The notes beneath the pieces are model-generated. The model saw nothing but the letters and a program-made list of their open reading frames with translations. It was not told where the DNA came from and ran no database searches. The translations under genes were made by a program, and so were the position numbers. A stretch of DNA of 49,123 nucleotides, filler included, from Streblomastix strix (taxonomy: Eukaryota): NCBI GenBank assembly GCA_008636045.1. It is 2 parts of 2 records of this genome, joined end to end, with 100 filler letters (N's around TTAATTAATTAA, not from the genome) between each part and the next. Parts side by side here need not be neighbours in the genome. Positions count along the whole stretch, not along the records: positions 24,613 to 49,123 come from SNRW01000230.1; 1 more part is not named here. One strand, given 5' to 3'. Shown piece by piece: positions 24,613-49,123 of the stretch. Numbering within the stretch: position 1 is the first letter of the stretch; each line of letters opens with the position of its first letter.

Positions 24613-24960
24613 AGAATTACTTACTAAGATAAGAATTTGATAAGAAAGATTCAATAATTGTTAAACTTAAAGAAATGAGTTTAAAAACTGAATCCACAAA
24701 TTATTAAAGATGTTTATGAAAATAATATTAAGAATGGAACTTTAGTTAATGGAAAGAATACATCGTTAAGATAGCATATTGAGAGAAATAAAGAAGATAA
24801 AGTATTCAGTAAAATGAATAGAATTAATACAACTAAGAATGGAATTACTGGAGTTCATACTAAAATGATTGTATTAGAAAATTAATGATGTTGCCCGTAT
24901 ATTGATGGAATATCTGCTGATAAATATGAAATTTAATATAAGATGTTGATGCGACCTTAA
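24613..24960 (+). pseudogene. C-terminus of protein-primed DNA polymerase B (element A)
   Basis: NYLL..KLK..TTKNGITGVHTKMIVLENQ*CCPYIDGISADKY aligns with the C-termini of the two full pPolB genes (GITGIHTKMVVLKDQSCCPY). Confidence 0.85.
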
Positions 24961-25013
24961 AATCAATGATTGAGGTATATTGTAAAATAATTTATTTTTG
25001 TTTATTAAAATTT

Positions 25014-26334
25014 ATGGCTCAACACAATTTACGTACTCGTAGAAGTAAATCATAAGCATAAAATCTAGATGAATTACTCAACAGATTTAATAAAACCAAG
25101 AAATAATCAGATATTGCAGAAGATTCTATGAATTTATCGATAGAAACCATTTTGAAATAACCTCGAAGATTAAATCTTACAGAATTTGTTAAAGAAATTT
25201 AAATTCAAGATTCTGACAGCGAAATAACAGTAATTATTGAAAATGCTGATAAGATTCAATATGGTGGCAAAACTATTTAAGATTGTTTTGATGATTATAT
25301 TGCAAAGGAATAGAAGAAAGGTAAGAAGAGATAAAATATCAGATTGCCATAAGGAAAAGCTGAGTAAACATCGTAAGTCAAATTTCCATTCAAATCCAAA
25401 ATAAAACCATATGAATAAGTACATGGAGTTAAACTAGAGGTTGAAAAAAAATAATCTATAGTTCTTGATTATTAAATTAAATAATTATCATAAAAATTTG
25501 GAAGACCATATTTCTCTTATGAATTTGGTTCTTGGGAGATAGATGTAGTATTTTCAATGAATCCTGAGTTAGTTAGAATTAATTAAATTTTTCTATTCTT
25601 TATCAAAATCAATACTATAAATCTTGTTGTGTATCCTTTACATAATAAATCATAGGAAGATACTGAAAAAACATTGTAAAATTTGGTTTAAACTTAGAAT
25701 GTAACACATATCAGAGATGATGGTGAAAAAGGATTTGCTAGTAATTATCTTATGTAATTTTACAACAAGAATGATATTAAGACTTATTTTGTGAATGGAT
25801 CTTAAGAGTTAACGAATAATAATCGTATGGTGGATTTTGTAATAAGAATAATAAGAAATGCTTTTGGATATGTTGACAGATCGTTTTCAAATCACAATTT
25901 AATGTAATAAATGGTTGATCTTTACAAAGATACTCCTTATGATTCATTTGAAAATAAATTTACACCGATGTAAGTAAATAGTTAATAAGAGCTTGAAGCT
26001 TATTTCATAAGGAAAAATGATAAAAAATTACGAGAAGTTAAATATAAATAATAAGAAGAAAGCCTTACAAAATATAAACCAGGAAATTTTTTAATGATTC
26101 ATGTTGATTTCCTACGTGCAACGCATCGTTATATGAAGTAAAGAAAAAATTTCAATGAATTAGCCAAGTTTATTAAATATAATGGTAGAAATGTAGAACG
26201 TTTATTATTAAATCCATTTTCTTATTTAGATATGATAACTATACCAATTTATTATACAAAGCACTTCTATGAAAATAAATAATAATTAAATTAACCTTAG
26301 TTTATAAAATATAAATAATAATTTTTTTAATTGA
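25014..26334 (+). pseudogene. Retroviral-type (rve) Polinton integrase, probably frameshifted; end approximate
   Basis: RPYFSYEFGSWEIDVVF..FLFFIKINT..HIRDDGEKGF..NNRMVDFVIRIIRN..MVDLYKDTP..KFTP; C-terminal IPIYYTK. Confidence 0.8.
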
Positions 26335-26368
26335 AATTGTTTATAAAAATATTCAATTTTTGCAAAAA

Positions 26369-26690
26369 ATGAGTTAAGTTTATACGAAATTCCGTGATGG
26401 AAGATAATGCATATATAAAACTAAGGAAGAAACAAATGAAGTAGCAAAATAACAAAAAAATATAGATCAATTGGATTATAAGAATAAAAGAGATAATTTA
26501 TTAATAATGTATCTGATTCTTAATTAATTCCCAAAAAGAAATAGTAAAATATTATAACTCCATATTATCTTGAAAATAATAAAATACATGAAATTTTAAA
26601 CAAGTACGATAAAAATTTAAACAAAAATGATGATTAAAAATTATAAAGCGAAATTAAAAATCTTTTAAACTACCAATTCTGTTAGCGCTC
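26369..26690 (+). pseudogene. Small basic protein, homolog of the GRPRK protein at 36724-37188; end approximate
   Basis: GRQCIYKTKEETNEVAKQQK vs GRPRKYYTEKEARDMARLQRK; same position downstream of the integrase. Confidence 0.55.
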
Positions 26691-26789
26691 TTAAGAGTAT
26701 TTCGTAGTTACGCAACTTCAGGCTTCGCCCTGTCGAAGATAGGTGCAACAAATATAGTTTGCTAAATCGTTCACGATTTTGAAAAAGTA

Positions 26790-27826
26790 TATGGAATTAA
26801 TAAATAAAATATTGGAGAGTTCATTTTGTCTTATGAACTTTAGTAGAAGCTCTCAATTTCTTGACTACATTCTATTATGCAATAGAAGTTCATAATAACT
26901 ATGATATTGGAATATAATTTTTTTTAGTCTTCGTATCTTATTTACCTACTGGAACTACTGATTTCTTCATATAATGTTGAGGATTACAAAACTGATCATA
27001 TTTATAACCTAACTAATACGATTCAAATGATGATCTACCATAGATATCATTAATAGGAGATCTGCCCAAATCTGAAGCTCAAGTATCATAAACATTATTG
27101 AGATTATTATCTTAAAAAATAGCTTATTTTATTTTTTAAAGTTCACTATCAATAAAAAAATTTTAAGCTATAGTTTATTCTGGTTGCATATCTGGCTATA
27201 GTACTGAATCTGGAAGAATTTCTTGATTATTAATAGGATAGTCATTCAATCATTCTTCTTATTAAACTACTGAACTTCTAGATCTTAAATTCATAGATGG
27301 CTAATCTATTCTAGCAATAATATTTTACTCGTATTTCAAAGCATTCTCCATATGTTTGTCTTGTTTTAACTTACCATCTTCATTTACTCTGATCATAGTT
27401 TCATAAAGATCTTATAATTAGTTATTTGGGAAAATCTGTAGTTTAAATTAAACATCTAGCATAAATATCAGTCAAAACAAAGGTTCCAATCAAATCTTCA
27501 TAAGGTGATATTTTTGGATCTATTCGAAGAACTTCTTCTTCAATTTTTAATAATTATTTTCTAATCATTCCTTTATTTAAATTCTGACGACTATTTTTGA
27601 TTATATCTGGGATTTCCGCAACAAATTCAGGTCTATTTCTTTAATAATTATTATATTAAATTTGCACAGATTACATATTCTATATCAAATTACCAATAGC
27701 TTGTTGTTTATTCAACGTCTACTAACGACTATTAATGATTTGCGAGAATGTGTTAAGTGCAGCTTGTGATAACTCTTCTTCATATGATGAACCCTTAGTT
27801 TTACTCTTCTGTCCTTTCCAAGACAT
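26790..27826 (-). pseudogene. Conserved hypothetical Polinton protein X (element A copy); end approximate
   Basis: ATG 27826 MSWKGQKSKTKG.... C-terminal LGRSPINDIY..GY..KKNYIPISQL*TSIAQ matches the 35807-36721 protein. Confidence 0.55.
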
Positions 27827-28009
27827 ACTCCTAACTTATTTGAAAAATATATTTGGTAAGTATTTTAAGTATAAACAAAGTAAATCAAATTTCTAATTTC
27901 TTGAGATAAGTTAATAATAGTTTCTTCTTGTTTATTACTTTTTGTATTGAATATTAATATGAGCAATAAAAATATTTGAAAAACATATGTATTTTATATA
28001 TTTTTAAAG

Positions 28010-28233
28010 AATAATCACATTATAATAGAAGAATTTCTTGTTTTTTTCAATTTCTAAGTTTATTATTATGTGTTGCAACTAAATCAGATGCAAAAATTGA
28101 GCTCATATTTCTCATTTGATAATATAATAAGCGTCATAAGATGGACTAACTCAAGGAAATCATATGTGTTGCTTAGGGTACAGGTGAATAAGAATCATTC
28201 TTAAAATTAATCTAATATCTTAATGAAAAGTGA
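28010..28233 (+). pseudogene. Conserved small hypothetical protein (element A copy)
   Basis: QFLSLLLCVATKSDAKIELIFLI*QYNKRHKMDQLKEII matches 35418-35647. Confidence 0.65.
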
Positions 28234-28259
28234 ATACAGCAGTATATTTATTTTTGATA

Positions 28260-28800
28260 TAAAAGGAAAATCATCATTAAGCAAATAATTATTCTATTTT
28301 GACTCATATTATGGCTATGTTTCTTGGAAAACAACTATTTCCAGTGGATCTAAATCATTTTTAGCAAATTCTCTTATTAACATGCCCATAAATCTCACTC
28401 GTAATCTGAATCAAGATTATTTAGAGATATCTCATTGTATGAAATCATATATAAATAAGAAATTCTATGAATAATCTATGAATCCTAATGGAAATTTTAA
28501 ATTAACAGAGATAACTGTGATTCCAACTATAAAAATCAACTTCAATACTATTATCAACAATTGAAATAGTAATGAATAGAATTATTAAGGGTATTAATAT
28601 GCCCCCTTAGAAATGTGTATTATTACAACATAGTAAAATAGGTTTGTTGACATTGAAGAATAATGAATTTGAATGACGAATACTTGTAATCGTGGAGCAA
28701 TTTGCTTTAATATTGCTATTAATGAGCGAACTTAGAAATTATCAGTTGGAAAATTTTCATTGATTGCTATAAATAAGTTTAAGAAAATTAGAGGATTAGA
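28260..28800 (+). pseudogene. N-terminal part of putative minor capsid protein, truncated (element A)
   Basis: VSWKTTISSG..NMPINL..NQDYLEISH and NRGAICFN..QKLS..FSL align with the N-terminus of 33936-35396. Confidence 0.7.
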
Positions 28801-28807: not shown

Positions 28808-28901
28808 ATTGGGCCAGATATTTAAAACACTGGCCCAATCATAAAATTTTTTGAGATAAAATGCTTATGTTTTGGGTCCGTTCTTTAAAAGGCTGACCCA
28901 A
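28808..28901. repeat. Two tandem related hairpins at the A/B junction
   Basis: ATTGGGCCAG/CTGGCCCAAT (28808-28839) and TTGGGTC/GACCCAA (28872-28901), both with TTTAAAA between the arms. Confidence 0.85.
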
Positions 28902-28951
28902 TAATGAACAACATTAATTTATTAATTTTATTTTTTTTATTAGTATATAAA

Positions 28952-29344
28952 ATGGAAAGACTATAAGAATGGCGTCGTTTATTTGGTTTTCCAGATTATG
29001 AGATAATGGGAGAAGAGCCGCATACTATACGCCGACGATGTGATTAATAAATATCAGTAATTAAAATAGAAAATGGATATTATAAAATTGAACTTAATAA
29101 TAAATGTTATTTCTTACATATACTAATTGCTAACGAATTCGTTTATAATCCCAATCCCAATTTTTATTATTTCATATAACATAAGGATTTAGATACATTA
29201 AATAATAAAGTAGATAATTTGGGATGGGTAGATGAATAACCCATTCCTAAACCGAAGCCTGAAACATAAACCATCGATCTAACAGCTGACGGTTCCATTA
29301 TCCTAAAAATTATTATATGCGGAACAACGAATTCATAAATTTGA
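28952..29344 (+). CDS. NUMOD4-HNH endonuclease-like protein (130 aa)
   Basis: EWRRLFGFPDYEI..NGYYKIEL..FLHILIANEFV.NP..IQHKDLDTLNNKVDNLGWV; open frame ATG to TGA under code 6. Confidence 0.8.
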
Positions 29345-29365
29345 ACAAAAATAACCCATTAATGC

Positions 29366-32300
29366 TCAAACAATAACGTAATCACTAGCCTTTAATCCAT
29401 AAACGTAAGTACAACAGCTTTAATCCTTTAATACTATAGCCTTAGTGTGTATGCCAGTAATGTCATTCTTTTATGTTTCTATTTTTGACATAATATAGTT
29501 CATTTATCCAAGTCTCATATTAGTCGCTTTTGTTATCGTTCCATCATTAATGTTATCCACTATATTTTATTTGCTAATTTTAGTCGTTTTCTAATTGACA
29601 CTCTTTAGTTTTATCTTTTCTTTTTCATCTACTTTAATATAATAATTTTTTAGGCGCTAGTGCTATCATTTCTGTTCCTTAATTTTCAGGAGCTAAATCA
29701 AGTATTTTTTTCTCATCCATTAAATCATTTTGTATAGTCGGGAAGAAATATTTTGCATAATCATCATAAAATTATTTATCTTTAATTACGCAGTTAAATT
29801 ATTATAAATGGCCTGCGTCAGCTGAGCCACTAACCGCCCATAAAGCTGAATCAGTATCACCTTCCACGAAGTGCATTTTTTACATGTCAAAAGCTTTATG
29901 CATAAAATTATATACAAAATTAAGATACCAATATTTAGCATTATCCAGCACAAAATAAGCCTCCTAAATGGGTGTCTTACATGCGCAGGTCTCATGGTTC
30001 ATTTATACCGCGTAAGCATTATCAGATAATTATTATTCATCCATAAAAGTATTTGATAAATGGGCCTTCAGGGCTCCCTTCTTATCTATGACCTTCATTT
30101 CGGTATATTTCTCTGTGTTCATTCCATCCTATCCATATGATGAGTTCATGATAATTTTACAAAACTATTCAAATCCTTTATTTCCTTCTATTTTCGCTTA
30201 AATTCTCTTTCCTATAAATTCCTTGACGAACGGATTAAATCCATCATGTTTATTAAATAAAATTAATTGTTTTACATCATCAATAATAAAATGGCAGTCA
30301 TCGATTAGGAAACATAAATAGTAAGAGCTGAAGGACATATATTAATCCATTGTCGATAATAAATTTGTTAGTTTTCGCTATTTTTAGTCTGTTTTAATAC
30401 CATTATTTTTCATATAATTAAACATGCAGGACCCAATGGTTTCATCATTAGTGGTAAATGTATAGTTTCTTATAATAGGTGGGAAATTAATAAATTAATT
30501 AATATATTTTTAGTCGATGTATCCCTTTATCTCAGCTATAAATAATTGGCCGTCTTTCTTGAATCTATTTTTATTATTAATTATATCCATTATCTTTTGT
30601 TTATCATAATACGCTGATAATCTTCCAATGACGGAGTCAGGCATAAACATTTTATTTCCTGTATATTTGATAAATTTATGTGGCTCTGATGACATAATAG
30701 AGGGGAAAAGAGAGTTGAAATCAACGCCGATGATACGTGTTATTCTACGGTTTGATGTTAAAACCGTTACTGTTTTAGTCTCTTTGTTATACTAAAATTT
30801 CTTTATTACGTCTTTTCACGTTATATTTTTCTCTATACATGACATTAGATAGGCCACTAGTTATAACACTACGAATAAATTTATAATTTTCAATGTTTGT
30901 TAAATTAGTGGGGAGACATTTAAGCATGCAAAATCTTCTAAGCTATATAAATAATTTACTAATATTTTTATCTTTATTTGAACAATATTTATTGCAATAT
31001 AAACAACATGGTTATACGTTTTATTTTGTATGGGGTAAATCATTATTGAGTCGATCAAGTGTTGGACGGTTATTGAATGTAAATTTATCCCCACAAATAG
31101 CACATGTTGATGTCTCGAATAATTGCTTAAAATAATCGAAGTCATTGACGGATACATTTTTGGAACTGTCATGATGTTTAATTTAGTCCTAAAATTTATA
31201 TCCATCTACTTTATATTTCCAAATTGAGGGATATAATACGAACTTATAAGAGTTGTCAATTATAGGGGGATAATTAGCATTTATATCAAAATCCTTATAG
31301 GCTAATGCGTATTTGATAGCGTTTGCACATGCGGCCATGGAAATGAAGCTAAACATATCAATTTTATACTCTATATTCATTTTTATTAAATTATCTATTG
31401 GCGCAATCATTATTTTTGTATCCTGTTCATTATAATATTATAAATATTTCCATCTATTTTTAAATTCTTTTGCATCATCTAAATAATTTTTATATTCGTC
31501 ATCGCACATTGATGAATTCTTTAGTGTTGAATTGAAAGCCTCTTAGGGGAATGGATCAGATTAGTTAAGAACTTCATTGTAATTATCATTGTTGATGTAT
31601 TCATATGGAAATACGCCTTTTTCATCACCTGCCTAAGTTGAGAAATTTTTAGCAAAATCCTTCAATGCCATCGGCTGAACATAGACCATAATATCGCAGA
31701 ATTTTAATTTAATTTATGAATGCCTATGTTTAACAATAATTTATTTGGCTTATGATGAACTACCAATATAACTCTTAATTTCCCAGTCCTCAGATTATAG
31801 ATTTTTAAATATAAATGCAAAATCGAACTTTGTGCTATTGAATCCAACAACGGGAACTTCAACGTCAAATGGCACATCATCGTTTAAACATTTATTGTCT
31901 TCGCCAATTTATTCCGCTTCTTTGAATATTTATTTAAGCCACTAATTTATAAAATCATCTCCATTTCTCAAATCAAAATAAATCGTTTTTATACCTTATT
32001 TATTCTTAATTGTTGAGGCTACAGAAAGAGGAACCAATTATGATAATTATTTGCTTGATTTTCCAAAATCTTTATTAATTATTTTCTCCACTGTTTCTAA
32101 ATCATAAGTGATATAGTATTATGTAGGCTAAAATTCATTTTCTCGATTATTTGCAAGTAAATAGGCGTATGTTTCGCTCTACATTATATGGGGACAAAAT
32201 GGTCTTTGCACTGTTTCCAATTTAATTTCTTTGACTATTTTACCTCCATTAATTTCACATTTCTTAATGTGTTTCTCATATTGTGCAACGAAGTGAATGT

Positions 32301-33910
32301 TTTTAGGGTCAAATATTTTTTATTTACAGAAGGGGCAAAATTTCAATCCTATTAAAGTTTCTTTATTCGAGATATAAAAAGCGTGTTATACCATTGATGT
32401 TTCACTATTGGCTTCATCAATTAATACATTAAATTCAGGAACTTCAACGGGTTCATTAACCGATTTATCAGAAGAATCACCAGAAACTTCATTAACGTCT
32501 TCATTATAGACTGCATCTGCAGTCTTACGACAGTATTTATATACCTTTGATTAATAATATGTTTAATTTTCCACTGAATAACTATAAATATTTATTTTAA
32601 TTTTCTCCCTTAAAACGAATTCATCAATTTCTGTTTCAATGTCAAACCCAGTGAAATCATTTAGCCATTTTTGAAATTCATTGTCATCTGTCTTGTATGG
32701 TAATTCATAAAATTTAGCCATATGTTCCTTTACCATGTGCTCTCGTGAGTGTTCCCTGATTCTTTATAGGGGTGAATCTGGATATTTAAATAAATTATAA
32801 GCGTAGAACCAACATATATTATATTTGCATCTTGTCGTTCGCAAACAATTTCTATGGCCCTTCATATGAAAATCAATTAGTTCCTTAATGCTGCCGCCTA
32901 TGTGATACCGTGATAATTTGAAAGTTTTTATCATCAATGAATAAATGGCAATAAATCGCTGTTTTGTACTATCTAAATTAAAGTTCTACATTTCAATTAT
33001 TTCAGATTTTACAAATTATTTATATTCCTCGATATCTTATTCATTGATGATTGATTTAGGGGTGTGCCTTTATGTCCTTGATTCATTGGGTGTAATGTGC
33101 CCGTATGACACTGATAGATGACCATTTTTGTCTCTATTTTACTTCTCATAAATTACTCCAAAATCAAAGGTAATTTTAAATGGTTTAAGATTTTATTTTT
33201 CATAGACTTCATCAATAAAATTATTTATCTCGCCTAAAGAATAAATGAAATTATAAAAGTATGTATCGCTTATTTCACCTTCAATATCCTTTTCAAAATG
33301 ATATCCTTTGCGTGCTTAACTAACTGCTTCAATAAATTTATGTCCTATTTATGGAGGGAAATAAAGCAAGATGTTAGACCAGCCATTTTCAATCTCATTA
33401 ACTTCGCCGTTGTTGTATTTATTAATTTTATCCTTTATTTCTTCGTTCTATTATATTTCAATGTATATTTATGGAAGAACAAAATTGCGTTTGGTCTCGC
33501 TAAAGTTCTCTGGTTTTGTGAATTAAATTGTCTCATTAAGCAAACGCTATTGAATCTATTAATCATATTCCTGCTATGCATATTCTTATTATTGTTCGCG
33601 TTTATATTCAAGCAAATCCTATTTATATTAATTCTAATGGAAATAATTGATTTGGTTGTTTTGCTCCATTAGTCCTTGCTATTGATGCTATTATTATCGT
33701 TATTATTGATGTTGTTGTTATTATTGTTATGCTTCAGCCACTTACCGCAAATGCACATTATAAAGCACTTTGCCATGGCCCCCTTGTTTATTTTGAATAT
33801 TATTGTGGGTGAATTATTTAATCTTTATATTAGTTTATCCTTTTGATACAAAACGCGTATTCTATTGCCGCTGTTTAATAGTAGCCGATTTTTTTATTTA
33901 ATTTGTCCAT
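29366..33910 (-). pseudogene. Protein-primed DNA polymerase B (element B), frameshifted
   Basis: Exonuclease motifs YDLET and GFNSTKFD; Cys/His insert CAICG..TLDR..PH..CCLYCN; polymerase motifs GVDFNSLFPS, KIIMNSSYG, EGDTDS. 1-nt indels near 29650, 30830 and 33780. Confidence 0.93.
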
Positions 33911-33935
33911 TTATAATAAATACATATAATTTATT

Positions 33936-35396
33936 TCATTGATATTAAATTTCTAGTAGTAAATTATTATACATATCACAATATTATGTCGGTATCTTAC
34001 GGCCAAAGTTATCATATAATTTTAATACGACTGATTTATTCTAGCCAATAAAACACTCTTAAGACATCATATTTTAACCCCATAAAACAGGGGCATCTAC
34101 CAAGTTCTATTTAAAGCAAACATTATTAAACCCATTACCCCCGACTGTCTCCATCGTTATACCCTTTAATTAATTATTTACGCATATAATTAATATTTAT
34201 GGATATTCAATAAAATTACCTATAAATGGGCAAAATATCAGTATATCAGGAATCAAACTATTAGCTTAAAATTTAGTCTTATAAAACCAAGTCTCCAAAT
34301 CAATCTGTTTTATTGACGATGCAAAATTAACCAGTTAATTAGCTTTATTTTCACTTAGCCCATCATACAAGTCCAAATCGCCAACGAGTTAGGTATATAA
34401 ATTTGGCGATAATATTAATTTTTTAGCATACCAATTAAAATATTCAACTGATGCATACTCACTAACAACTTCCGCGATGAATTAGCCATAAAAGCCAGTC
34501 CCTCCAATCGCCGCATAAATATCCGTCCATTTGCTAGTGGTTAAAGCTGGTAGTGAGCATATTATTCTCATGGGAAACGTATTTATATTATTGATTATTT
34601 ATTGCATGGTCTATTGTTAAACATCAATTGGTTGGTCATCTAATGTTGTAATAGCCCCCGCTGAACTAATATTTATTCGCTTGTCGAATAAATAACGAAC
34701 TGATAATGCATTTGACGCTAGATGTTCAACAGAAGTTATAAAGTTATTTGTAGTTGGACAATATAATCGGATTAATCCAATAGCTCGAAAAGCAACACCT
34801 GTGCTATAGTCCATTATCCAATAGTGATAAAGGAACGCATCAATTCTTAAATTTAGATAATTTACAGCTGAACCTACTATATCCTGTCCATAATTTGTAT
34901 TTAATGAAAATTGATTATTTGATAATTTTTATGAATGTTCATTCTGGGGATTATTGAAGCAAATAGCGCCTCGGTTTGTTGTTATCTATTATTTGAAATA
35001 TTTTTCTTATCCGTCAATAAAATTAGTAAATTAAGGAACTTAAAGTGCAAGCAATTATGGAACATATTTATATCCCTAATTATCTTGGTCATCAACGTAT
35101 TAATTATTAATGGCTGTATCTAAATTTAGCCTGATAGGTGGCAACTCTGTTAATGCTTATAAAGTAAATGTATTGTTTCTATTATCTTGCTAATAGTATA
35201 TTTTTCTATTGGGGGTAGAAATTATATTATGTTAAATTTCTACATAATCACTGTTTAAATAATAGGGCAAATTTATTGGGATATTATTAATGCTATTCAC
35301 TTAAAATGAATTATAGCCTGAGGGTATTGTGGTCATCCATGAAACGAAATCTTCCTCTGAGTCTGAGCTAATAATTTGTAAGCCAATGTTTGACAT
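33936..35396 (-). CDS. Putative minor capsid (penton-like) protein, 486 aa
   Basis: Single frame ATG 35396 to TGA 33936 under code 6. Beta-rich, with C-terminal VVLKLYDNFGRKIP..NLLLEI recalling the penton 'L.D..G..I' terminus. Function is inferred. Confidence 0.6.
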
Positions 35397-35417
35397 TTAT
35401 TTAAAGTAAAAATAAAG

Positions 35418-35647
35418 AATTATTTTCTTCTTTCGTACAATAATTCAATTAATTTCTCAACTGCATTTTAGCTATTTTCTTAGGCTATCGAAATGATTTA
35501 TTTTAGGTCTTCCATCCTCAGGCGCTTATTAAATTATCTCAATAAAAATCTAAGTTCAAATTCGGGGTCTGATTTCGTGGCTAAAGAAACTAGAGAACAT
35601 AGAAATTAATTATAGACCATAAATTCCTCACATGATATTTTAATCAT
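35418..35647 (-). CDS. Conserved small hypothetical protein (element B copy); stop uncertain
   Basis: MIKISCEEFMVYNQFLCSLVSLATKSDPEFELRFLLRQFNKRLRMEDLKQII; homolog at 28010-28233. Confidence 0.65.
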
Positions 35648-35806
35648 TTAATTAAAATAAAAATAATTTTTCAATTATGATTTATGGCTAAAATTTGAGT
35701 CGTGAGAAGAAAAAAGACTGGATACAAAAATTATAATATCAATGGTTTCCATTTGATCCTAATTAAAATATAATATTATCATTAGAATATTTTAAAATCA
35801 AATAAA

Positions 35807-36721: not shown

Positions 36722-36723
36722 AA

Positions 36724-37188: not shown

Positions 37189-37226
37189 TTATTAATTGAT
37201 AAAAAATAAAAAATTAAAAAAATAAA

Positions 37227-37370: not shown

Positions 37371-37379
37371 CAAGTGACA

Positions 37380-38090
37380 TCAACACAATATTATTTTAAA
37401 AATTTTTAAAATAATTTTAGAAACAATTTTTATAAATGTAAAAAGCTTAATTTAGCATAACTCGAAAAAAGTGCAAAAAATATAATTCTGATTTATTTTC
37501 ATCAATGTGATTGTATTTTTCATAATATTGCTTTAAAACTTATTTTGTATTTTTTTAAATTACATTTATCACAATATATTACAGTTTTCACGGCAAGAGC
37601 GGCAAAAATTTGATTTTTTTATTTTTGTCATTTTTTACGGTTGTTTCAATTGTATTTATTGTTTTTTTGTTTTATATTTTTAATTTATATTATTTATGGC
37701 TATTTAATAATAAAAAACTATAAATTTATAGTTGTGCGTTGTATAAAAACATTTTTTATTTTTTTTACAAATTTAGCGTATCTCTTAAAATATAAAATAA
37801 AACTATTGATAAAAATAGTTATTATATAATATTTATTTATTGAATTAACCAATAATGAAGTGTTTGCATCAGTGTATAGCGCAAAAATCAAAAAATATCA
37901 AAATTTGCTGATTTATGCTCCCACTGCAGCAAAAAAATATCAAATTGGTAATTACTGAACCAGAAATATTTTTATAAATTAATATTAATATAAATCATAA
38001 ACTTATGTAACATTCATACGGCTTTAAAATCAGGATTATTTTTTTCGCACTTTTTTCTAGATGTGCAAAAAATACTTATTTTGATATGGT
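37380..38090. mobile_element. Non-coding AT-rich insert with nested imperfect inverted repeats (MITE-like)
   Basis: 37455-37494 vs 38027-38066 match as an inverted repeat at 34/40 by eye; second pair ~37600-37627 / 37882-37910. Genes are truncated on both sides. Confidence 0.5.
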
Positions 38091-38213
38091 GAAAGATTAC
38101 TGGTGAATGCTCATAGTTTTCAATACCTTACCCATCGCCATATAGCCACTAATATAGTCCGACTTTTGCGTTTTCGCCAATCTACTTAAATAATCGCTTG
38201 CTGAGAATGACAT
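38090..38213 (-). pseudogene. 5' stub of an unidentified element gene, cut by the insert
   Basis: MSFSASDYLSRLAKTQKSDYISGYMAMGKVLKTMSIHQQSF preceded by the element's T-rich/AAATG start context. Confidence 0.5.
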
Positions 38214-38284
38214 TTTTAAATAAATAAAAATAAATTATATTATCGAATGGTTATAAGCTTTTTATTATTTTTATTTTAAACTAA

Positions 38285-38491
38285 ATGGGATTCTTTAGTA
38301 AGATAGCAAATTTTGGATCGAAAATTTTAGGTGGCGTAAAACATGTTGCGTAATGGATAGCGCCAACTCTCCATAAAGTTCTTTCAACTGTAGCAAGCCG
38401 CGTAGGAATGTTTCATCCAGGAATTGGTGGAGCACTTGGCGCAGGTGCTAATCTTGCGGGGGCGGTAGATCGACTGGTAAATAAACGCTGA
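38285..38491 (+). CDS. 68-aa Gly/Ala-rich amphipathic protein, candidate membrane-penetration/cement protein
   Basis: MGFFSKIANFGSKILGGVKHVAQWIAPTLHKVLSTVASRVGMFHPGIGGALGAGANLAGAVDRLVNKR*; TAAATG start. Confidence 0.75.
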
Positions 38492-38542
38492 CAGATTCAA
38501 ATGAGGAACAATAAACGGAAATTTATTTTTATTTTTATATAA

Positions 38543-40475
38543 ATGCAAAGAAATAATCCAATTCATTCTTAATAACAGATCCGAGCAGTCCGTTAATTAA
38601 TCACTAACGATATAGCTTACTATATCCAGTTTTCGAAACGTGGAGGAAATTCAGCGGGTGGAATGCTATAAAATGAAGATTATTAACTGTTTATAGATAA
38701 CGATAACGCTTTAGTTTATGCGGCCAATAATTAAATCATTGACGGCCAAGCTTCAGATTTTGCATTAAAAATAGCCGCTGATGGTTTGCTTACGGTAAAG
38801 GATTTAAAGGTTCTAAATTATGATTTCGTCGCATAAATTAACCAATTAATTAATGAAGTAAATTAATTATAATCTACTGTCGGCTCTATTGATTCTGATA
38901 TTGTTGGGGTAAAAAATGAGCTGCTGATCATTCAGTAAGAGCTTGCACGATTGCAGCATTTTAGGAGATATTATTTATTGAACACGGATATTTAAAATTT
39001 ATCAAATTCCGCTATATGGAGATTTTGCATTCAGTGTCGAAAGTGGCACCGTATGGATGTATGACACATCATGGTATAATAGCGGCAAAGTTGTCCCTGA
39101 TTAGGTAACGCCTGCTAGTGATGCGGTGCCATTAGCGGATAGTGGCGCAGGTGTTGCTGGCATTAGCGCAGAATACGCTAGAGGGGACCATCGGCACCCC
39201 CTTAATGTCAGCGAATAAATACCTTCTAGAGATACAGGCACAAGAGCAGCGGGAACTTCAACGGCATACTCTAGAGCCGACCACTAGCACATTTTGAACA
39301 CAGATCCCACTGTCGCAAATATGCCGCAAAAAGATACGGGATCAGGAAACAATGGAAATTTAGATTATTATGCTAGGTCAAATCATGCTCATCCTCTTAA
39401 TGTTGATCCAACTGTGGCAAATGTTCTATTGGTAAATGCTACTGCAGCCGCTAATGGAACGAGTGATTTTTATAGTAGAAATGACTATGTGCACCCTTAA
39501 TAATTGACATATGACGGAAACATTACTGCGACTAAATTTATTAAGACTGGCGGATTGGCTGCTGAGGTGCTATGTGTAAATGAAGATACAATAAACGGAG
39601 TGGTTGATTTAGCTACTGATTAAACCATTACAGGTATAAAAACATTTGGCTAAATTTAAGCTTAATCATTCAAAAAAATAAATGGGACAAATCAATAAAT
39701 ATTATTAGCGGATGGAACAACAAAATCAATAGTTTATGCTACTTGGTATAAATACATATCAACACCTTAATAATACGTTAAACTATGAGCTCTCAACCCA
39801 TTTTTTGAGAATAACTGTATGTCTGTTGAATTTAGAGTGCGTCGTAGGAGTGGTTTTGGATTATTATAATTTCATCAAACAACTAGCACTGCAGGATTAT
39901 GCAGTTTTTATTATCATTTTTAGCCTAATTTTTAGAGTTGTATGTAATAAGCATAAACCTTATATTATGGTGATGGAAAAACAAAAACATGTGAATTATG
40001 GATACAATTAACATCATGGAGTAATAGAATACATATAGATTATATTAAAAGCGGAACAGTGACCGCATCTATTACTAATATATTAACTTCATCTTCAGTT
40101 GAAAATTTACCTACAGATTATGCATTAATGTTCTAACTAACTACAAATCTATAATTTAATCATCAAACGATTAATAATGCCCCATTAATGCAAAATGGCA
40201 ATATTCATATAAATACTATATCTTCTGCTTATGATGATGGATTGAGAATTGGAAGACCTAACAGTAATGGGCTAAGTTCAATATATTTATGCTGTTCATC
40301 AAGCGCTGTAGGAGAAATATCTGGATAATGGTCAATTTGTTCTCCAAATGAGGGATTTTAATAGAATACATTAAGTTTAACAATATAGTTGTGCGCTGAA
40401 GTATCTACACCTAATAGAGGCATATAAATATCCGCTGATGGAAACACACTAACATTTAACGGAAGAGTTTTATGA
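38543..40475 (+). pseudogene. Phage-tail-fibre-like protein (~640 aa), with one frameshift (~39015) and one in-frame TGA (~39786)
   Basis: Coiled coil; four repeats YARGDHRHP / YSRADHQHI / YARSNHAHP / YSRNDYVHP; ATKFIKTGG, TDQTITGIKTF, QILLADG; beta-rich C-terminal head. Confidence 0.75.
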
Positions 40476-40951
40476 TTATTTTATTTTTGTGTTATATAAA
40501 TAATAAATCGACAAACCAATTAAGCAACTTTTTTAATGAACTTGTTAAATGCCACTTTGAAAATGAGGATACAATAAGGGTAGCCATTGATGCCCTAAAT
40601 AATTTGTTAGTCAAAGAAGGCAATGAGCGACGCCATCCACTTTTGAAAGAATTACAGAGGATAAATAAATAATTTCTAAATTTATAAAATAAATTGTAAA
40701 GCATAAAATAATTTATCGATGATGAAGAATATAAAAATAAATTATTTAACGAACAGGGGAAGTATTTTAAAAATAAATATAATTAAATTAAAAAGCAATT
40801 GGATTAAAATAATCAGCACCTATAAATAAAAAAATATATAATTTCCGTAGCTAATGATACGGAGAAATAAATATATACTGACTTTATAAATGATGCATAA
40901 AATAGTAGCTTGATCAATTATTATTCTCTGGCTCCTGTGGGTCTGGGTTGA
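40472..40951 (+). CDS. Hypothetical coiled-coil protein; start uncertain
   Basis: Track ORF extends to TGA 40949-40951 under code 6. Confidence 0.55.
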
Positions 40952-41004
40952 TGTTAGCCCGAGTCTTTAGACGGCCCCCTTGCGGGGACTGGCGAGCATT
41001 TGCT

Positions 41005-41253
41005 TCAAAATTCATCATCATATTCAAATAGTGAAAATAATTAATGACATTAATTGTTTTTTTCTGATAATTATTCGGTGAATGTATAATGTTCTTTGAA
41101 TTTTTGATATTCTTATTTTTCCTCTGTATTTAAAGTATTATTTTCTATTAATGTTTCAAATATATTAAATATCACGTAATCCGTTGCGTTATATTCTAGG
41201 CCGATGTTTGTTGCCAATTAATATATTTATTCAAATTCTTTTAATGATGACAA
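41005..41253 (-). CDS. Hypothetical acidic protein (start codon reads TTG, possibly mutated)
   Basis: 82 open codons SSLKEFEQIYQLATNIG..FEYDDEF*; element-type T-rich upstream context. Confidence 0.45.
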
Positions 41254-41280
41254 TTATATAAAAATAAAAATAAATATTTT

Positions 41281-41658
41281 TCATATCCCACATTATTATT
41301 ATTCTGTTTTGATTTCATTAACATAGCCATTGATTGCTTCGTTTATGGCCTTCTTCTTTTGATTCGATTATATGATTTGTTTTATGCTTATTTTCTATTC
41401 ATTATTATTTATGTCATTAACGAATATATATTTTTCGTTATATTTTCCATATTATTTTAATTTTCTATAAAATGTATATTCGCTATTTTTAGCTTTGGTT
41501 AATTAATAGAATTGTAAGTTCCATAAACGGAGTTCATTAAATTATTTGCCGTTGATTTACTCTATTAGTTGTCCATCTTTCTTTACTTGGTCTTTGCTAA
41601 GGTAGAATTCCAGTTTCTTAAATTGATTAACCGAATGGTAGAGCGAAGTGGAACTCAT
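41281..41658 (-). CDS. Hypothetical protein (125 aa)
   Basis: Open frame MSSTSLYHSVNQFKKLEFYLSK..CGI* under code 6; TATAAAATG context. Confidence 0.6.
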
Positions 41659-42083
41659 TTTATATCATATAAAAAAATAAAAATAAAAAATTTCAAACTT
41701 ATTATTTTTCAGTCAGGGATAAATTCAGCATCTTCAAATTTAAAATATATCGCCAGTGTTGGGCTAATTCAAAATATTTATTTGCTATTGCTTCGTTCAG
41801 AAATGCTTCAGTTTATTACTCAGTTAATTTATTCCAATGAATAATATTTTGATTTTTTCCCATTTTTCTTCTATAAAAAAATTATATTATATAAATTGTA
41901 ATATTCAGTGGAACCAATACTATATCCAAATACCCCCTTAATTATTTGATTAATTTAACTGTGTCGGTTAAATTATCATGTATCGATACAGACAATATAG
42001 ATATAATAAAATTGAAGCCATAAAATATATAGTTCATGCAGGACATAATCAAATTCAAAATGTTCATTTTTTACACTGTAAAA

Positions 42084-43100
42084 ATGACACTTTCAGATTT
42101 ACAAAATATATAATTTGCGAACTAAGATTTATTGAACGAATATAAAACGCGGCCAATTACAAAAAATTCGTTGTTCCTCGTCAATGGAAACCATTATATT
42201 GTTGGAGCTGTTGGCTCAGGTAAAACAACGCTTATGTCCAAGCTGATTGTTATGTATAAAAAAATTATTGACTCCTATATTATTTATTTCTCTAATTTTG
42301 GAGCTGATGAAACAATGGCCTTAAATTTAAATAGTAATGGAATATAAATAGTGAATATAACATATGGCGAGGCAATGATTTTTTTGCCTGAGTATGACGA
42401 GGTAAAATATAGCACTAAAGAAGTATATACTTATTACAAGCTACAGGAATAAAATTTTGACTACTATAGCGATTTTTTTAAGCGAATGAATGAAAAATTA
42501 ATAGAAGCAAATCTAATAAAAAGGGATGAAAAACGATTAGTGTATGTCGATCGAATTAATGAATTATTTTAATCTACAATAATAGAGACCATAAATAAAT
42601 ATTAATAACCTTTTGAAATCTTGCGGTTCAAAGTTCTCCCCATTATTTAAAATGTTAGCTATTAAAAAAAAATGAAAGATATAGACGATAAATAAACAGC
42701 AGATATAAAAATATTAAAAATTCCTATCCTAAAAGATGCTCAGCTATTGAATACTTTCATGCTATTTGATGACATAGGATCCAATGCAGATATTCAACGT
42801 TTTTCGTCTTCATAATCTAAGACCATCACCCATTTAGTTAGTGATTCACGCAATAGTAAAAATACAATATTTTTTATAGTTTAACGACTCAGTTATTTAT
42901 TTAAGACAGCGCGGGTACTTTCTCATGTTATAGTAATTGGAGTTAGTTTAGGCGAAAGTGATTTAAAATAAGTGTATGAGGAGAATAGCATATAAGGCTT
43001 AGACTTCGACGAATTTTTATTATAATATGGAACATTAAATAAATATGAGTTTACGGTTTTAAACATGTGGCTCGGAAAATTCGAGATACTGAGAAATTGA
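42084..43100 (+). CDS. A32/FtsK-HerA family virion packaging ATPase (338 aa, intact)
   Basis: Walker A YIVGAVGSGKTT, Walker B FMLFDD, DSRNSKNTIFFIVQ, KTAR; a single frame to TGA 43100. Confidence 0.9.
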
Positions 43101-43150
43101 AAATAAATAAACTTTATTTTTATATTTTTCATTTTTTTATTTTATATAAA

Positions 43151-43960
43151 ATGGAACAAGTCAATACTACCGCCAAAATCTCAAAGAACAACATTCGATT
43201 TAATGAAGGCTCAAATAATGGTTTAAACTTATTGATTAAGACTGATGATCATTATATAAATACCACGATATTTTATGAGTAATATAATAGGCGCTTTAGA
43301 AAATTAATTGGAAGAGAACATTGGAAAGAATATGTAAAAGCAGAAACTATAGAATTTGAGTCCGCACCAAAAGAACGTAACCGGTTAATGTATCAAATCA
43401 ATAAAATATTTGATAATGCTTATAAAGGTTATTATATCAGCCCTATCCTTATTAACTATGTGGAAACGTGGATAAGCCCAAAATATGCTGGGTACGTTTC
43501 GTAAGATAATGGATTCAATTAATGAACGAGTATAAGTAACATATGATGAAACGTCAAGCATATATGCATATGCAGAGGATACTATTAATATGTTTATTTA
43601 AGAATTATTAATATAAAATTAATAGCTTTAATTTGAAAAAAATAATTATAAAATCGAGTTATTTCATAGGATAAAGAAAACGATTTTATTTTAGCCTTAT
43701 AATTAATCGAAGAGAAAGAGGATATAATAATATACAAATTTCATCGAAAGCATAAAAATAACTTTAAAGAAAATAAAAGCTATATTTAAATTTATGATAA
43801 TTTACCCGTGGCCGTTAGTGGAAACCATGAAATAATAAAATAAATTAGGGCTAGCTTTTAAAATATATCAATTCATTATATTACGAAGGAAGTTCAAAAA
43901 TCAGAAAATGAAAAGTTTTTAAATCAACTGGACGACCTAGTCAATGCTTTATATAAATGA
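43151..43960 (+). pseudogene. KilA-N domain protein, frameshifted near 43500
   Basis: LLIKTDDHYINTT..W..Y..KGYYISPILINYVETWISPKYAGYVS/KIMDSINE. Confidence 0.85.
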
Positions 43961-43989
43961 ACAACATTAATATATTTTTGGAGGGGGTC

Positions 43990-44005
43990 GGCTGGAAAAC
44001 CAGCC
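43990..44005. terminator. GC hairpin between convergent KilA-N and pPolB genes (putative 3'-end signal)
   Basis: GGCTGG-AAAA-CCAGCC in a GC island within AT-rich DNA; function is inferred. Confidence 0.4.
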
Positions 44006-44070
44006 AACGGCTATAAAGACAAAAATATCCGCACTTTTGAGCACGAGCTTTTTAGCACGGGCCAATTTAT

Positions 44071-47000
44071 TCAATCAATTATATAATCATTAGCATTTAA
44101 GCCGAATATATAAGGGCAACAGCTTTAATCTTTTAGCACTACCATTTTTGTATGTATGCCAGTGATTCCATTTTTTTCTGTAGCTATTTTTGACATAATA
44201 TAATTCTTTTGGCCTAGTCTAATATTAGTCGCTTTTGTTATCGTTCCACTATTAATATTATCCACTATGTTTTATTTACTTATTTTTGTTGTCTTCTAAT
44301 TGACACCTTTCAATTTTATTTTTTCTTTCTCTCCAACTTTTATATAATAATTCTTAGGGGCTAATGCAATCATTTCTGTTCCTTCGTTTTTGATAGCTAA
44401 ATCTTATATTTTTTCTTCATCTAATAAATCATTTTCTAATGTCGGGAAGAAATATTTTGCATTTTCATCATAAAATTATTTATCTTTAATTATGTAGTTA
44501 AATTATTATAAATGTCCCACGCTGGCATCTCCTGATACAGCCCAATAAGTCGAATCAATATCACCCTCCACGAAATGGAGTTTCGACATGTCTTAACATT
44601 TATACATAAAATTATATATAAAATTTAGATACCAGAATTTGGAATTATCCAATACAAAATACGCTTCTCAAATGGGTGTCTTACATGTGCATGTCTCAGG
44701 GTCCATTTATACCGCGTAAGCATTATCAGATAATTATTGCTCATCCATAATAGTATTCGATAAATGAGACTTTAACGCTCCCTTTTTATCTAGTATTTTT
44801 ATATCCGTATATTTCTCGGTATTCTTTCCATCAGATCCTTATGATGAGTTCATCGTGATTTTACAAAATTATTCTAGTCCTTTATTTCCTTCTATTTTTG
44901 CCTATATTCGCTTGCTTATAAATTCCTTGACGAACGGATTAAATCCTTCATGTATATTAAATAAAATTAATTGTTTTACATCATCAATAATAAAATGGCA
45001 GTCATCTATTAGGAAACATAAATAGTAAGAGCTTAACGACATAAATTCGCCCATAGATGATAATAGATTTGTTAATTTTCTTTATTTTTGGTCTGTTTTA
45101 ATGTTGTTATTTTTCATTTGATTATACATATATGATCCAATCGTATCCCTGTTAGTGGTAAATGTATAATTTCTTAAAATAGGTGGGAAATTAATAAATT
45201 AATTAATATATTTTTCGTCGATGTGCCCCTTTAATTCAACTATAAATAACTAATCGTGGCCCCTTATTATATCCATTATCTTTTATTTATCATCAAATCG
45301 CCCAATGATGGAGCCTGCCATATACATTTTGCCACCTGTATATTTTGTAAATTTATGCTGCTCTGATGACATAACACTGGGATATAAAGAATTGAAATCA
45401 ACACCTACAATATGAGAAATTATATTGGATGATGTTTGAACATGAACTTTCTTATTCACGGGGTCATAAAAGAATTATTTTTTTGTGTCTTTTCCTGCTA
45501 TATTTTCCCTATGCATAACATTAGATAATCCGCCAGTTATTCCATTACAATTCAGTTTATAATCTTTTATATTTGTTAAATAAGTAGGGAGACAGTTCAA
45601 TATGCAAAATCTGCGAAGTTAAATAAATAATCGGCATATATTTTTATCTTTATTTGAACAGTATTTATTGCAATATAAACAGCACGGTTATACATTATCT
45701 TTTGTATGCGGTATACTATTATTGATTCGATCGAGTGTTGGCTTATTATTCACTATAAATTTATCACCACAAATAGCACAAACTGAGGATTCGAGTTACT
45801 GCTTAAAATATTCGAAGTCATTGATGGAAATATTATTCGAATAATCACGCTTTTGAATTTGGTCTTGAAATCTATAACCTTCTACTTTATACTTCCAATA
45901 ACTAGGATATAATACGAACTTATAAGAGTTGTCAATTATGGAGGGATAATTAGCATTTATATCAAAATCCTTATAACAAAATGCATATTTGGTGGCGTTT
46001 GCACATGCTGCCATTGGCATAAAGCTAATCATATCAATTTTATACTCCAGATTCATTTATGTTAAATTATCTATTGGGGCTATCATTATTTTTGTATCCT
46101 GTTCATTATAATATTAAAAATATTCCCATCTATTTTTAAATTCTTTTGCATCCTCTAAATAAATTTTATATTCGTCATCGCTCATTGATGAGTTCCTTAG
46201 TGTTGAATTGAATACTTCGATGGGGAATGGTTCCCTGTTATTGAGGACATCATTAAAATTATCAGTATTAATATATTCATATGGAAATACGCCCTTTTCA
46301 TTACCTTCAATTGAACCACCAAAATTTTTTGCAAAATCTTTCAATGTCATCGGTTGAACATAGACCATAATTTCACAGAATTTCAATTTGATTTATGAAT
46401 GCTTATGTTAATCAATAATTGATTTAGCTTATGACGAACTGCCAATATAGCTCTTTATTTCCCAGTCTAATTATTATAGATTTTTAAATATCAATGCAAA
46501 ATCGAACTTCGCACTATTGAATCCAACGTTGGGAACTTCTACGTCATTTGGAATATGCGAGTCTTCATAAAGATTATCAATTTATATTTAATCCGCTTCT
46601 TTGAATATTTATTTGAGCCATTAATTAATAAAATCGTCGCCATTTCTCAAATCAAAATAAATCGTTTTTATACATTATTTATTCTTAATTCTCAAGGATA
46701 CAGAAAGGGGCACCAATTATGAAATCTATTTGTTTGAATTGCCAAAATCTTTATTAATTACTTTCTCCACTGTTTCAAAATCATAGGTGATATAGTAGTT
46801 CGTGGGTTTAAATTCATTTTCTCGATTATTTGCTAATAAATAAGCGTATGTTTTGTTCTGCATTATATGCGGGCAAAATGGCCTTTGAACTGCCTCTAAT
46901 TTTACCTACTTTATTATTTTTCCTTCGTTAATTTCACATTTTTTGATGTGCTTCTCGTAATTTCTTTCAAATTGAGAATGATGCGGATCGAAAGCTCTAG

Positions 47001-48371
47001 ACTTGCAGACCGGGCAAAATTTCAATCCTATTAATGATTCTTTATTAGAGATATAAAAGGCATGCGTTTCATTTTCTGAGGAGCATATTAATACGTTAAA
47101 TTCGGGCACGCTGACGGGTTCGTTATCGGATTCGTTGCTGGATTCTTCTGTGGCTTCTTCGTTATATTTATATGCTTTTGATTGATAATATATTTTTTGC
47201 TCAGTATCATAATCATAAATATTTATATTAATTTTCTCGTCTTAAATAAACTTATCAATCTCGCTGTCAATATCAAATCCTTTATAATTTTAAAGCCAAT
47301 TTTATAATTATTTTTCTGAAATGTTATAATATTTCATCATGTGCTCCTTTGCCATATGCTCGCGTGAATGTTCTCTAATTCTTTTATCACTAGTATCTGG
47401 ATATTTAAATAAATTATATGCATAGAACTAGCATATATTATATTTGCATCTTGTCGTTCTCAAACAATTCTTATGTCCTTATAAATGAAAGTCTATTAAT
47501 TCTTTTATTCTACTGCCTACGCGAAACTGTGGAAGGGCAAACGTTTTAATCATCATCGAATAAATGGCAATAAATCGCTGTTTTGTGCTATCTAAATTAA
47601 AGTTCTACATCTCTATAATTTCTGATTTAACATACTCCTTACATTCTTCGATATCTTAGTCAGTGATTATAGATTTGGGGATATGATTTTATGTTCTTGC
47701 TTCTAGTGGCAAAATATAATCGTATGACACCGTAAGATGCCCATTTTTGTCTGTATTTTGCTCTTCATAAATTACTCCAAAATCAAATGTAATTTTAAAC
47801 GGTTTATGATTCTGTTTTTCATATACCGATTCAATAAATTTATTTATCTCTTCTAAGGAATAAATCAAATTATTATAGTATGTACTGTTTATCTCTCCCT
47901 CAATGTCTTTCTAAAATTGATACCCCTACCGTGCTCTATCAGCTATATCAATAAATTTATCCATATCTGCAGGTTGAAAATAATGCAAAGTATCAAAGAA
48001 ATCGTTTCATATTTCAATGACTTATTCATTGCCATATTTATTAATTTTGTCGCTAATTTCTTCATTCTATATCATATCAATATAAAGCTATGGTAATTGA
48101 AAGCGTTTTTCGTTTCTTAAAAGTTCTGGGGCTTAGTAAATTGTTTATTCTCATTTAAAAAATGCCTTTGGATTTCTTGCTCTTGTTCAATTCGTTTATT
48201 TTATGCATCAATGAATTTATATAGATTATTAAAATTATTCCTTCCACGTTAGGGAAAATTAAATTCGTTTAGTTTTTGGTCAAGCAATTATTTTAGTTCA
48301 TTTCTTTTTAATTTGCTTTTTTCGTTTGAACCTAACAATTTGATGATTTCACTTTTCTTTAAATATGGCAT
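44071..48371 (-). pseudogene. Protein-primed DNA polymerase B (element C), ~1430 codons, with few lesions
   Basis: YDFET, GFNSAKFD, GVDFNSLYPS, KITMNSSQG (Y>Q), EGDIDS (T>I), PKNYY. In-frame TGA at 48007 and a frameshift near 48095. Confidence 0.93.
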
Positions 48372-48441
48372 ATTTATTATAAATTAAAAAAATAGAAAAT
48401 AATAAATAAATTTAGTTAGGATAAAATAAATATAAATTAAA

Positions 48442-48759
48442 TCAATCAGTTATAAATTCTTTGTTTATTATATCAAATTAATCTTTCAATTCTGGATATG
48501 CTTGATATAAAATGTCGATGATTTCTTTATTTTAGTATAACCTCTTTTTATATATATTTATTTAATTTTATGCTTCATCAATAATTTCTTTGATGAGAAT
48601 CTCAATGGTATAATTATTAAACCAACAGCCTTTAGTTTTTTTAGAATATTATTGGGGATGAATTATTTAATCTTTATATTGGTTTATCATTTTGATACAA
48701 AACGCGTATTCTATTGCCGCCATTTAATAGTAACCGATTTTTTTATTTAATTTGTCCAT
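48442..48759 (-). CDS. Hypothetical protein (105 aa, MDKLNKKIGYYQ...)
   Basis: Open frame ATG to TGA; the first ~42 codons are nearly identical to 33785-33910. Confidence 0.65.
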
Positions 48760-48784
48760 TTATAATAAATAAAAATAATTTATT

Positions 48785-49123
48785 TCATTAAAATTAAATT
48801 TTTAGTAGTAAATTATTATAAATGTCTCCGAATTATGTTGGTATCTTACGGCCAAAGTTATCACATAATGTAAATACTACTGCTTTATTCTAGCCAATAA
48901 AACACTCTTAAGACATCATATTTTAACCCCATAAAACAGGGGCATCTACCAAGTTCTATTTAAAGCAAACATTATTAAACCCATTACCCCCGACTATCTC
49001 CATCGTTATACCCTTTAATTAATTATTTACGCATATAATTAATATTTATGGATATTCAATAAAATTACCTATAAATGGGCAAAATATCAGTATATCAGGA
49101 ATCAAACTATTAGCTTAAAATTT
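48785..49123 (-). CDS. C-terminal part of putative minor capsid protein (element C), partial at the window end
   Basis: Nearly identical to 33936-34274. Confidence 0.65.

Follow-up and report, generated by a model that had tools for sequence, protein, structure and literature searches.

The closest described systems to the DNA considered here are the Metamonada-group Maverick-Polintons of Streblomastix strix (MMPC_40). The accessible part of Bellas et al. (2023; PMC10120064) counts 820 major capsid protein (MCP) genes of this 'Metamonada group' in S. strix (~11% of the assembly) and reports that the elements read TAA/TAG as Gln, in agreement with the host's table. According to the accessible text of 10.64898/2026.06.19.733378, the strong divergence of their structural genes keeps Metamonada Mavericks ungrouped, and the accessible text of 10.64898/2026.10.13.758929 makes no mention of S. 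strix; in the literature covered, with subscription journals outside that coverage, we found no gene map of the S. strix elements. In this study, we analyzed a stretch of 49,123 nucleotides, filler included, from the S. strix assembly GCA_008636045.1 (hereafter the window; all positions count along it), in which 24613-49123, a single contig piece (SNRW01000230.1), holds three partial, overlapping elements of Maverick/Polinton type, A, B, and C. These copies are decayed members of the known, still unclassified metamonad Maverick lineage. Most probably, a Maverick/Polinton family present at high copy, in which TAA/TAG are read as amino acids, has left three incomplete and mutated copies in this piece; these are likely integrated in the genome of the termite-gut oxymonad S. 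strix, or of a close relative, and likely accumulated by mutual insertion with subsequent deletion. A previous sequence-only reading had proposed a probably undescribed, virion-forming lineage, of which 'undescribed' does not stand and 'virion-forming' is unsupported for these copies: high-copy, recoded Polinton-like viruses of S. strix, 820 MCP genes included, are already published (PMC10120064, accessible part), the best matches of the three proteins searched are from S. strix, and the copies in the window are dead, with no MCP and with inactivated polymerases. What is new here is the gene map, together with a large, possibly virophage-like penton candidate.

Compared with MMPC_40, the copies share the inferred host, the TAA/TAG=Gln reading and the high copy number, and their polymerase is related to elements of Trichomonas vaginalis, as are the published MCPs in the part of that study available; yet the group is defined by its MCP, which the window copies lack, and they are thus filed as remnants rather than as complete members. 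In element A (24613-28790) the pPolB tail is broken and the integrase frame open; a small gene, a damaged paralogue of a basic protein (X), and the initial third of a penton-like gene follow. Element B (28952-37355) carries an HNH gene, pPolB, the penton-like P0001, a small gene, X, an AT-hook-like protein, and an integrase stub, and element C (38066-49123) a gene stub, amphipathic, coiled-coil, and fibre-like genes, three small genes, a packaging ATPase, KilA-N, pPolB, and a penton-like end. The HNH gene, the KilA-N gene, and the second integrase stub come in addition to the genes recognized earlier. Packing is dense, with 93% of 24613-49123 inside named pieces and a largest gap of 710 bp, and the breaks in the B polymerase are single-base indels or stops rather than introns; the compact spacing first described is upheld. 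The proposed three viral genomes survive as Polinton/Maverick DNA under TAR=Gln (TAR, TAA/TAG) in a protist, but no element is complete, and the three pPolB genes reduce to two near-full, broken copies and a broken C-terminal tail of ~350 bp (24613-~24965). None of the copies is able to replicate or to form a capsid unaided.

The recoding itself is clear. Under the standard code the longest frame in 24613-49123 reaches 144 aa, whereas table 6 yields two far longer ones, of 1072 and 1098 aa. TAA/TAG make up 60-93% of the Gln codons in ten viral frames, versus 35-49% in two frames of DIRS-type retroelements from the other contig of the window. When TAA/TAG were masked in pPolB and the columns compared with standard-code relatives, one column that is Gln in 32/32 relatives proved to hold TAA in both the B and C copies, and another, Gln in 28/34, holds TAG in copy B. 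TAR is certainly not a stop in this piece and Gln is its best single reading; the TAA/TAG=Gln usage of S. strix elements is found here, with column evidence that is mixed.

The polymerases place the elements among metamonad Mavericks. The B copy (29366-33939, minus strand, start not fixed) matches PF03175 at E 6.8e-8; the C copy (44071-48788, minus strand), near-full over 44071-~48600, has a broken N-terminus; and the A tail (24613-24965, plus strand) retains ~80 alignable residues with an internal stop, at 42-55% identity to S. strix pPolB tails. B and C have a common segment (29366-34274 and 44071-49123) that is 79% identical overall. Palm identity reaches 89% toward S. strix proteins and 46-50% toward T. 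vaginalis, whose Mavericks use the standard code; among the 120 pPolB matches listed, T. vaginalis is the sole other named eukaryote, along with metagenome proteins. A quick tree of 81 rows, limited to metamonad and environmental sequences and without outgroup, puts both window polymerases inside an S. strix clade of 15 rows (SH-aLRT 99; 21/102 candidates were dropped as too short or unmatched). One pPolB of this family (P0115) is deposited as Alphaproteobacteria bacterium and probably derives from protist DNA binned as bacterial. Neither of the long window copies is intact. Copy B has single-base frameshifts near 30832 and 29651 and an in-frame stop near 30816, while copy C has an in-frame stop at 44668-44670, a Gln in place of the invariant motif-B Tyr, and DIDS as motif C. 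Between them the ratio of nonsynonymous to synonymous substitutions (dN/dS) is 0.20-0.21 under table 6, with dS 0.65-0.84, so both were coding under selection before they decayed. Since this purifying selection is seen under table 6, the family multiplied after adopting its host's code, an adoption that should bar it from standard-code hosts. Both polymerases also contain a Cys-rich insert, HNH-like by eye, which fits the homing endonucleases described as inserted in polinton pPolBs in the accessible text of 10.1101/2024.03.18.585575.

The integrase and the packaging ATPase are likewise of Maverick/Polinton type. The element A integrase (25014-26372, plus strand), confirmed as a 452-aa open frame, matches a profile from related elements at E 3e-71 and keeps an acidic triad (D177, D236, and D274) at near-invariant columns, 12/44 of which are altered. 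A PDB search matched Integrase only (E 0.29) and Pfam rve was found in 2/10 family rows (E 0.087); the Maverick/Polinton assignment thus comes through the related elements and the triad, the rve name itself being weakly supported. The A32-type ATPase of element C (42084-43100, plus strand) matches the relatives' ATPase profile at E 8e-9, and Pox_A32 was matched in 4/19 family rows (best 6.8e-6), the window's own copy being unmatched. It had been called intact, and its 338-aa frame is indeed open, but 22/145 family-conserved columns differ, including a His next to the arginine finger. Among the other 17 long rows 14 differ at 0-8 columns, and three divergent rows at 10, 26, and 34; both drift and a separate subfamily could account for the differences. 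ATPase homologues are all from S. strix (40/40 clusters, 36-72% identity), and neither the ATPase nor P0001 found a match in T. vaginalis. ATPase and pPolB also adjoin each other elsewhere in S. strix (EZS28_030325/030326, each listed on a 3456-bp contig), and fused models occur too. Scans of viral contigs (with the ATPase, pPolB, and the ATPase alignment) and of metagenomes (with the ATPase alignment) returned no locus, Gln-containing patterns missing TAA/TAG codons.

Further relatives use the standard code. Of the 63 loci from a metagenome scan, several combine pPolB, integrase, ATPase, a fibre-like gene (by eye), and an amphipathic protein with genes of 111 and 540 aa, an entire gene set in the standard code. 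In five of these loci (L029, L036, L027, L012, and L004) the pPolB, integrase, ATPase, and amphipathic protein are homologous to those of the window; the 540-aa MCP and the 111-aa gene, penton-like by eye, are theirs, whereas the 486-aa P0001 and HNH or KilA-N are found in the window. L029:6806-20665, L036:6809-20660, L027, and L012 are apparently whole, open-frame Mavericks of ~14 kb, good templates for placing the metamonad group, and one of them lies close to a DEAD-box helicase gene.

None of the window copies carries a recognizable MCP gene. An MCP profile of metamonad type had no match in the six frames of 24613-49123. In a control with a held-out MCP of 31% identity, planted pieces were found in 7/7 cases at 120 aa, 11/12 at 80, 12/16 at 60, and 10/25 at 40, so a remnant of at least 80-120 aa at ~31% identity would nearly always show; nor is any gap large enough for such a gene. 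The 540-aa protein behind the profile scores 0.97-0.98 in an atlas comparison to Parabasalia, Preaxostyla, and capsid clusters, with a recognition value that is below the bar, and matches by eye the S. strix MCP in Table S3 of PMC10120064. In the relatives the MCP lies opposite the amphipathic gene (8/8 loci holding both). At this position element C has a stub (38066-38213, minus strand), the 5' part of a gene, 47 codons, divergent from the amphipathic gene and cut at the junction, with no MCP similarity. As an MCP N-terminus it was rejected: it ranks 71/510, 67/500 shuffles do as well, and position alone favors the MCP. No protease family, such as the adenain-like maturation protease of Mavericks/Polintons, appeared in a Pfam scan of the window frames, but Pfam was equally blind to the MCP, ATPase, integrase, and pPolB of the relatives.

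What adjoins the stub suggests how the gene may have gone missing. Four sequencing runs (X1-X4) cover the piece in 30/30 bins with thousands of variant contigs, and the family is thus high-copy and present in more than one study; no RNA run was among the listed runs carrying window sequence. Element B ends in a second integrase, minus strand, of which the last ~40 codons remain (37230-37355; integrase profile E 6e-4) before it is cut at 37355. Beyond 37355, nine X1 and two X3 contigs continue with other letters, integrase-like by eye, and contigs of X2, X3, and X4 cease to match at 38066-38070. Between the two points lies a non-coding filler (37356-38070, 715 bp, 21% GC), a junction scar or an element end, with a 44-bp inverted repeat (37451-37494 and 38027-38070, 84%). 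Given that other copies continue differently at 37355 and ~38070, the B/C join is a deletion, an insertion, or an assembly scar, and loss of the MCP region at this junction is the simplest explanation.

The same region could instead be complete. On this account the family would be a naturally MCP-less satellite of ~15 kb, with its own polymerase, ATPase, penton, fibre, and lytic peptide, and would borrow the MCP of relatives in that genome which carry one. The unit repeated from B to C (spacing ~14.7 kb) leaves no room for an MCP, and none of the S. strix gene models of the window family that were searched showed an MCP part, a search with low power, however, for a profile of ~30% identity. 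Moreover, the unit is cut at precisely the two points where other copies continue differently, one of them the MCP place of all eight related loci that hold both genes; S. strix has 820 MCP genes (PMC10120064), and no second ATPase family turned up. We consider such a satellite improbable. Its fullest form would be an S. strix subfamily that is MCP-less and code-locked, in which a virophage-type penton replaces the 111-aa one of the relatives and the ~15-kb genome, with its own ATPase, fibre, and lytic peptide, is packaged in capsids supplied by MCP-bearing Mavericks of the same genome; to this, too, we give little credence, and loss at the B/C junction is retained as the likelier account. Locus-tag adjacency between published MCPs and matches to window genes was absent among the seven tags listed, and alternative frames of 236 proteins, which recovered 3/3 known ATPase overlaps, showed no MCP.

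The most distinctive gene is P0001 (33936-35396, minus strand), an intact 486-aa frame in element B, likely a penton (minor capsid protein) with a large insertion; the penton suspected earlier is thereby borne out as an intact penton-like frame, and the penton reading is likely. Its close homologues are all from S. strix (12/12 matches, 47-74%), and 52 matches emerged when 1.84 billion representatives were searched with a profile, the five close ones looked up being S. strix. PDB and Pfam searches of P0001 returned nothing meaningful. The prediction comes through a distant homologue, P0222, a 703-aa metagenome protein (E 2e-7) that has both ends and a middle stretch in common with P0001 while the insertions vary by >200 aa. 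In the atlas P0222 has as a neighbor the minor capsid family of Sputnik V18/V19 (PF21507; score 0.87, 149/256 features, rank 4), a score which, being below 0.9, is a lead only and has no Pfam or PDB sequence match beside it. The three better-ranked rows are unnamed viral proteins bearing carbohydrate-binding modules (CBM), and a 303-aa Preplasmiviricota protein aligned over residues 16-702 (TM 0.49, poor model). The link to virophages, in which MCP, penton, ATPase, and cysteine protease occur together, is confined to this lead, virophage MCP and protease not having been found in the window. We also take the end motifs of P0001 to resemble those of pentons. The P0001 family did not match the relatives' 111-aa protein (hhalign probability 0.4%).

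Could P0001 itself be the MCP of a separate lineage, and the unit a near-complete virus genome? At 486 aa it is MCP-sized, and its AlphaFold models, alone and with five homologues, stayed at pLDDT ~30 both times. Against this, the P0001 family did not match the metamonad MCP profile (hhalign probability 0.1%), the sole distant homologue varies by >200 aa of insertions between the same two ends, and its named atlas neighbor is a minor capsid family, lead though that is; both polymerases are broken in any case. Such an identity is very improbable, and P0001 is treated here as a candidate penton. An oxymonad-side gene map and a large penton candidate unlike the 111-aa one of the relatives should be useful for placing metamonad Mavericks.

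A parent element can be sketched from the genes present and from what is known of Mavericks/Polintons. Its integrase would insert a linear genome, which a protein-primed polymerase would copy from its ends; the A32-type ATPase would package the genome into a double-jelly-roll capsid whose vertices carry penton and fibre, and the amphipathic protein would breach the membrane at entry. An intact element would carry an MCP of the type counted in S. strix. The sequence directly supports the homologies, the reading code, purifying selection in the past, the breaks, and the lack of an MCP in these copies, whereas host, integration, order of nesting, the penton, fibre, and lytic roles, and the parental MCP are inferred from it. 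All proteins being made on host ribosomes, the family is tied to a TAR=Gln host.

Several points weigh against three piled-up copies of one recoded Maverick family. The piece is without flanking host DNA: the cluster opens at one end of its contig and extends past the edge of the window, and with no complete element and an artificial linker at 24513-24612 (unstranded; two runs of 44 N around a spacer, joining two contigs) neither host flank nor long terminal inverted repeat nor 6-bp target-site duplication can be seen. At columns at least 60% conserved in the relatives, only 3/12 TAA/TAG codons face Gln, and the Gln assignment therefore rests mainly on the literature; the other nine face Glu (two), Tyr (two), Leu (two), Arg, Lys, and Ala, most of them one base from TAA/TAG, as expected of decaying genes. 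Where an MCP would be expected, the stub does no better than chance, and no link was found between the window subfamily and any MCP gene. The penton C-termini of B and C (33936-34274 and 48785-49123; 94-96% identical) are far closer (dS 0.09) than their polymerases (~79% identical, 63-86% across pPolB), which fits either recent module exchange or recombination or a collapsed assembly. Run X1, possibly the source of the window itself, is an assembly too, and among the contigs listed none spans 37355 or 38070 at full identity.

The last two points bear on a further account, in which the order of the pieces is partly an artefact: short reads of hundreds of related copies would have been stitched together, A, B, and C would not be neighbors, and some breaks would be false. 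The jump in identity, which is 63-86% in pPolB and 96% where the penton gene ends, and the unbridged junctions favor it, as do a very high summed depth with thousands of variant contigs (6455 X1 contigs on the stretch) and the false stops described for short-read assemblies of endogenous viral elements (PMC10120064, accessible part). In turn, low-depth X1 contigs (6-11x) with 0-1 differences tile 26607-28481, including the broken X paralogue, and 39721-39939, where the stop of the fibre-like gene sits within a contig with 0 differences. The neighborhoods within each piece recur, moreover, in other S. strix gene models, such as that of the element B HNH gene in P0111, and in contigs of other studies, with the amphipathic and coiled-coil genes also joined in X4 record 30. 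We hold an artefactual order to be unlikely, if less so than the satellite, and keep the succession A, B, and C as a probable record of mutual insertion and deletion.

The remaining genes complete the map. In element A, the integrase is followed by a small, probably frameshifted gene (26369-26782, plus strand) with no homologue found, a broken X paralogue (26860-27950, minus strand; tblastn 32% over 91 aa, E 2e-4), and a truncated small-gene remnant plus 5' third of a penton-like gene with three stops (28051-28790, plus strand; 62-68% to P0009/P0006). Element B opens with an HNH-type endonuclease of 130 aa (28952-29344, plus strand), convergent with pPolB and matched to HNH_3 at E 0.004, below the cut-off. 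Beyond P0001 lie a small conserved gene of ~75-85 aa (35393-35653, minus strand; 68% to the P0007 N-terminus), protein X (35807-36721, plus strand), an intact open frame of 304 aa, basic and Gln-rich, with no Pfam match, whose role might at a guess be that of a core or DNA-binding protein, and a 117-aa protein (36724-37077, minus strand; 47-50% to part of P0011). The latter has a GRPRK motif that we take to be AT-hook-like.

In element C, the amphipathic and fibre-like frames of the sequence-only reading were both recovered. The former (38285-38491, plus strand, 68 aa) is likely a membrane-penetration protein; its match to the relatives' amphipathic profile (E 0.23) is the top one among 510 ATG-started stretches, and its hydrophobic moment ranks 10/510. 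It is followed on the plus strand by a 145-aa coiled-coil-like protein (38543-38980; 34% to part of P0050) and the fibre-like repeat protein (38982-40475; 37% over 467 aa to P0055), with one in-frame stop at 39786-39788. Three small genes of no assigned function follow: one at 40472-40951 (plus strand), one with a single stop (41005-41658, minus strand), and a broken one (~41700-42075, plus strand). Past the ATPase comes a KilA-N protein (43151-43960, plus strand; PF04383, E 1.1e-10) broken by stops, as the fibre-like gene and one small gene are also broken. KilA-N cargo is known from T. vaginalis Mavericks. The element ends in the last 112 codons of a penton-like gene (48785-49123, minus strand), 91% identical to P0001 and running off the window.

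The slot beside the pPolB 3' end is occupied by HNH, KilA-N, or integrase, depending on the copy, and an identical 16-bp stretch stands directly before HNH in B (28903-28918) and directly after KilA-N in C (43956-43971). GC-rich hairpins were noted at 28808-28840 (the A/B break), 37356-37369 (the integrase break), and 43990-44005 (after KilA-N), with z of -3.9, -3.9, and -2.6 at sites chosen by eye; seven further intergenic stretches folded no better than shuffles. At most of 11 viral gene starts checked (e.g. 25014, 35396, 38285, 38543, and 43151) a T-rich tract and then an A-rich run precede the ATG, possibly a common promoter or translation context.

The left contig of the window, with no physical link to 24613-49123, carries DIRS-type retroelements. 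One of them (5926-11166) reads in table 6, with a reverse transcriptase at 8194-9609 (E 6e-29) and a tyrosine recombinase at 6793-7863 (E 5e-10). Its three related inverted-repeat arms (5926-6010, 6295-6410, and 11056-11166) presumably represent DIRS terminal repeats and the internal complementary region, and a long (TA)n microsatellite at 6437-6497 lies between them. More decayed DIRS-like frames occur around 20176-24180.

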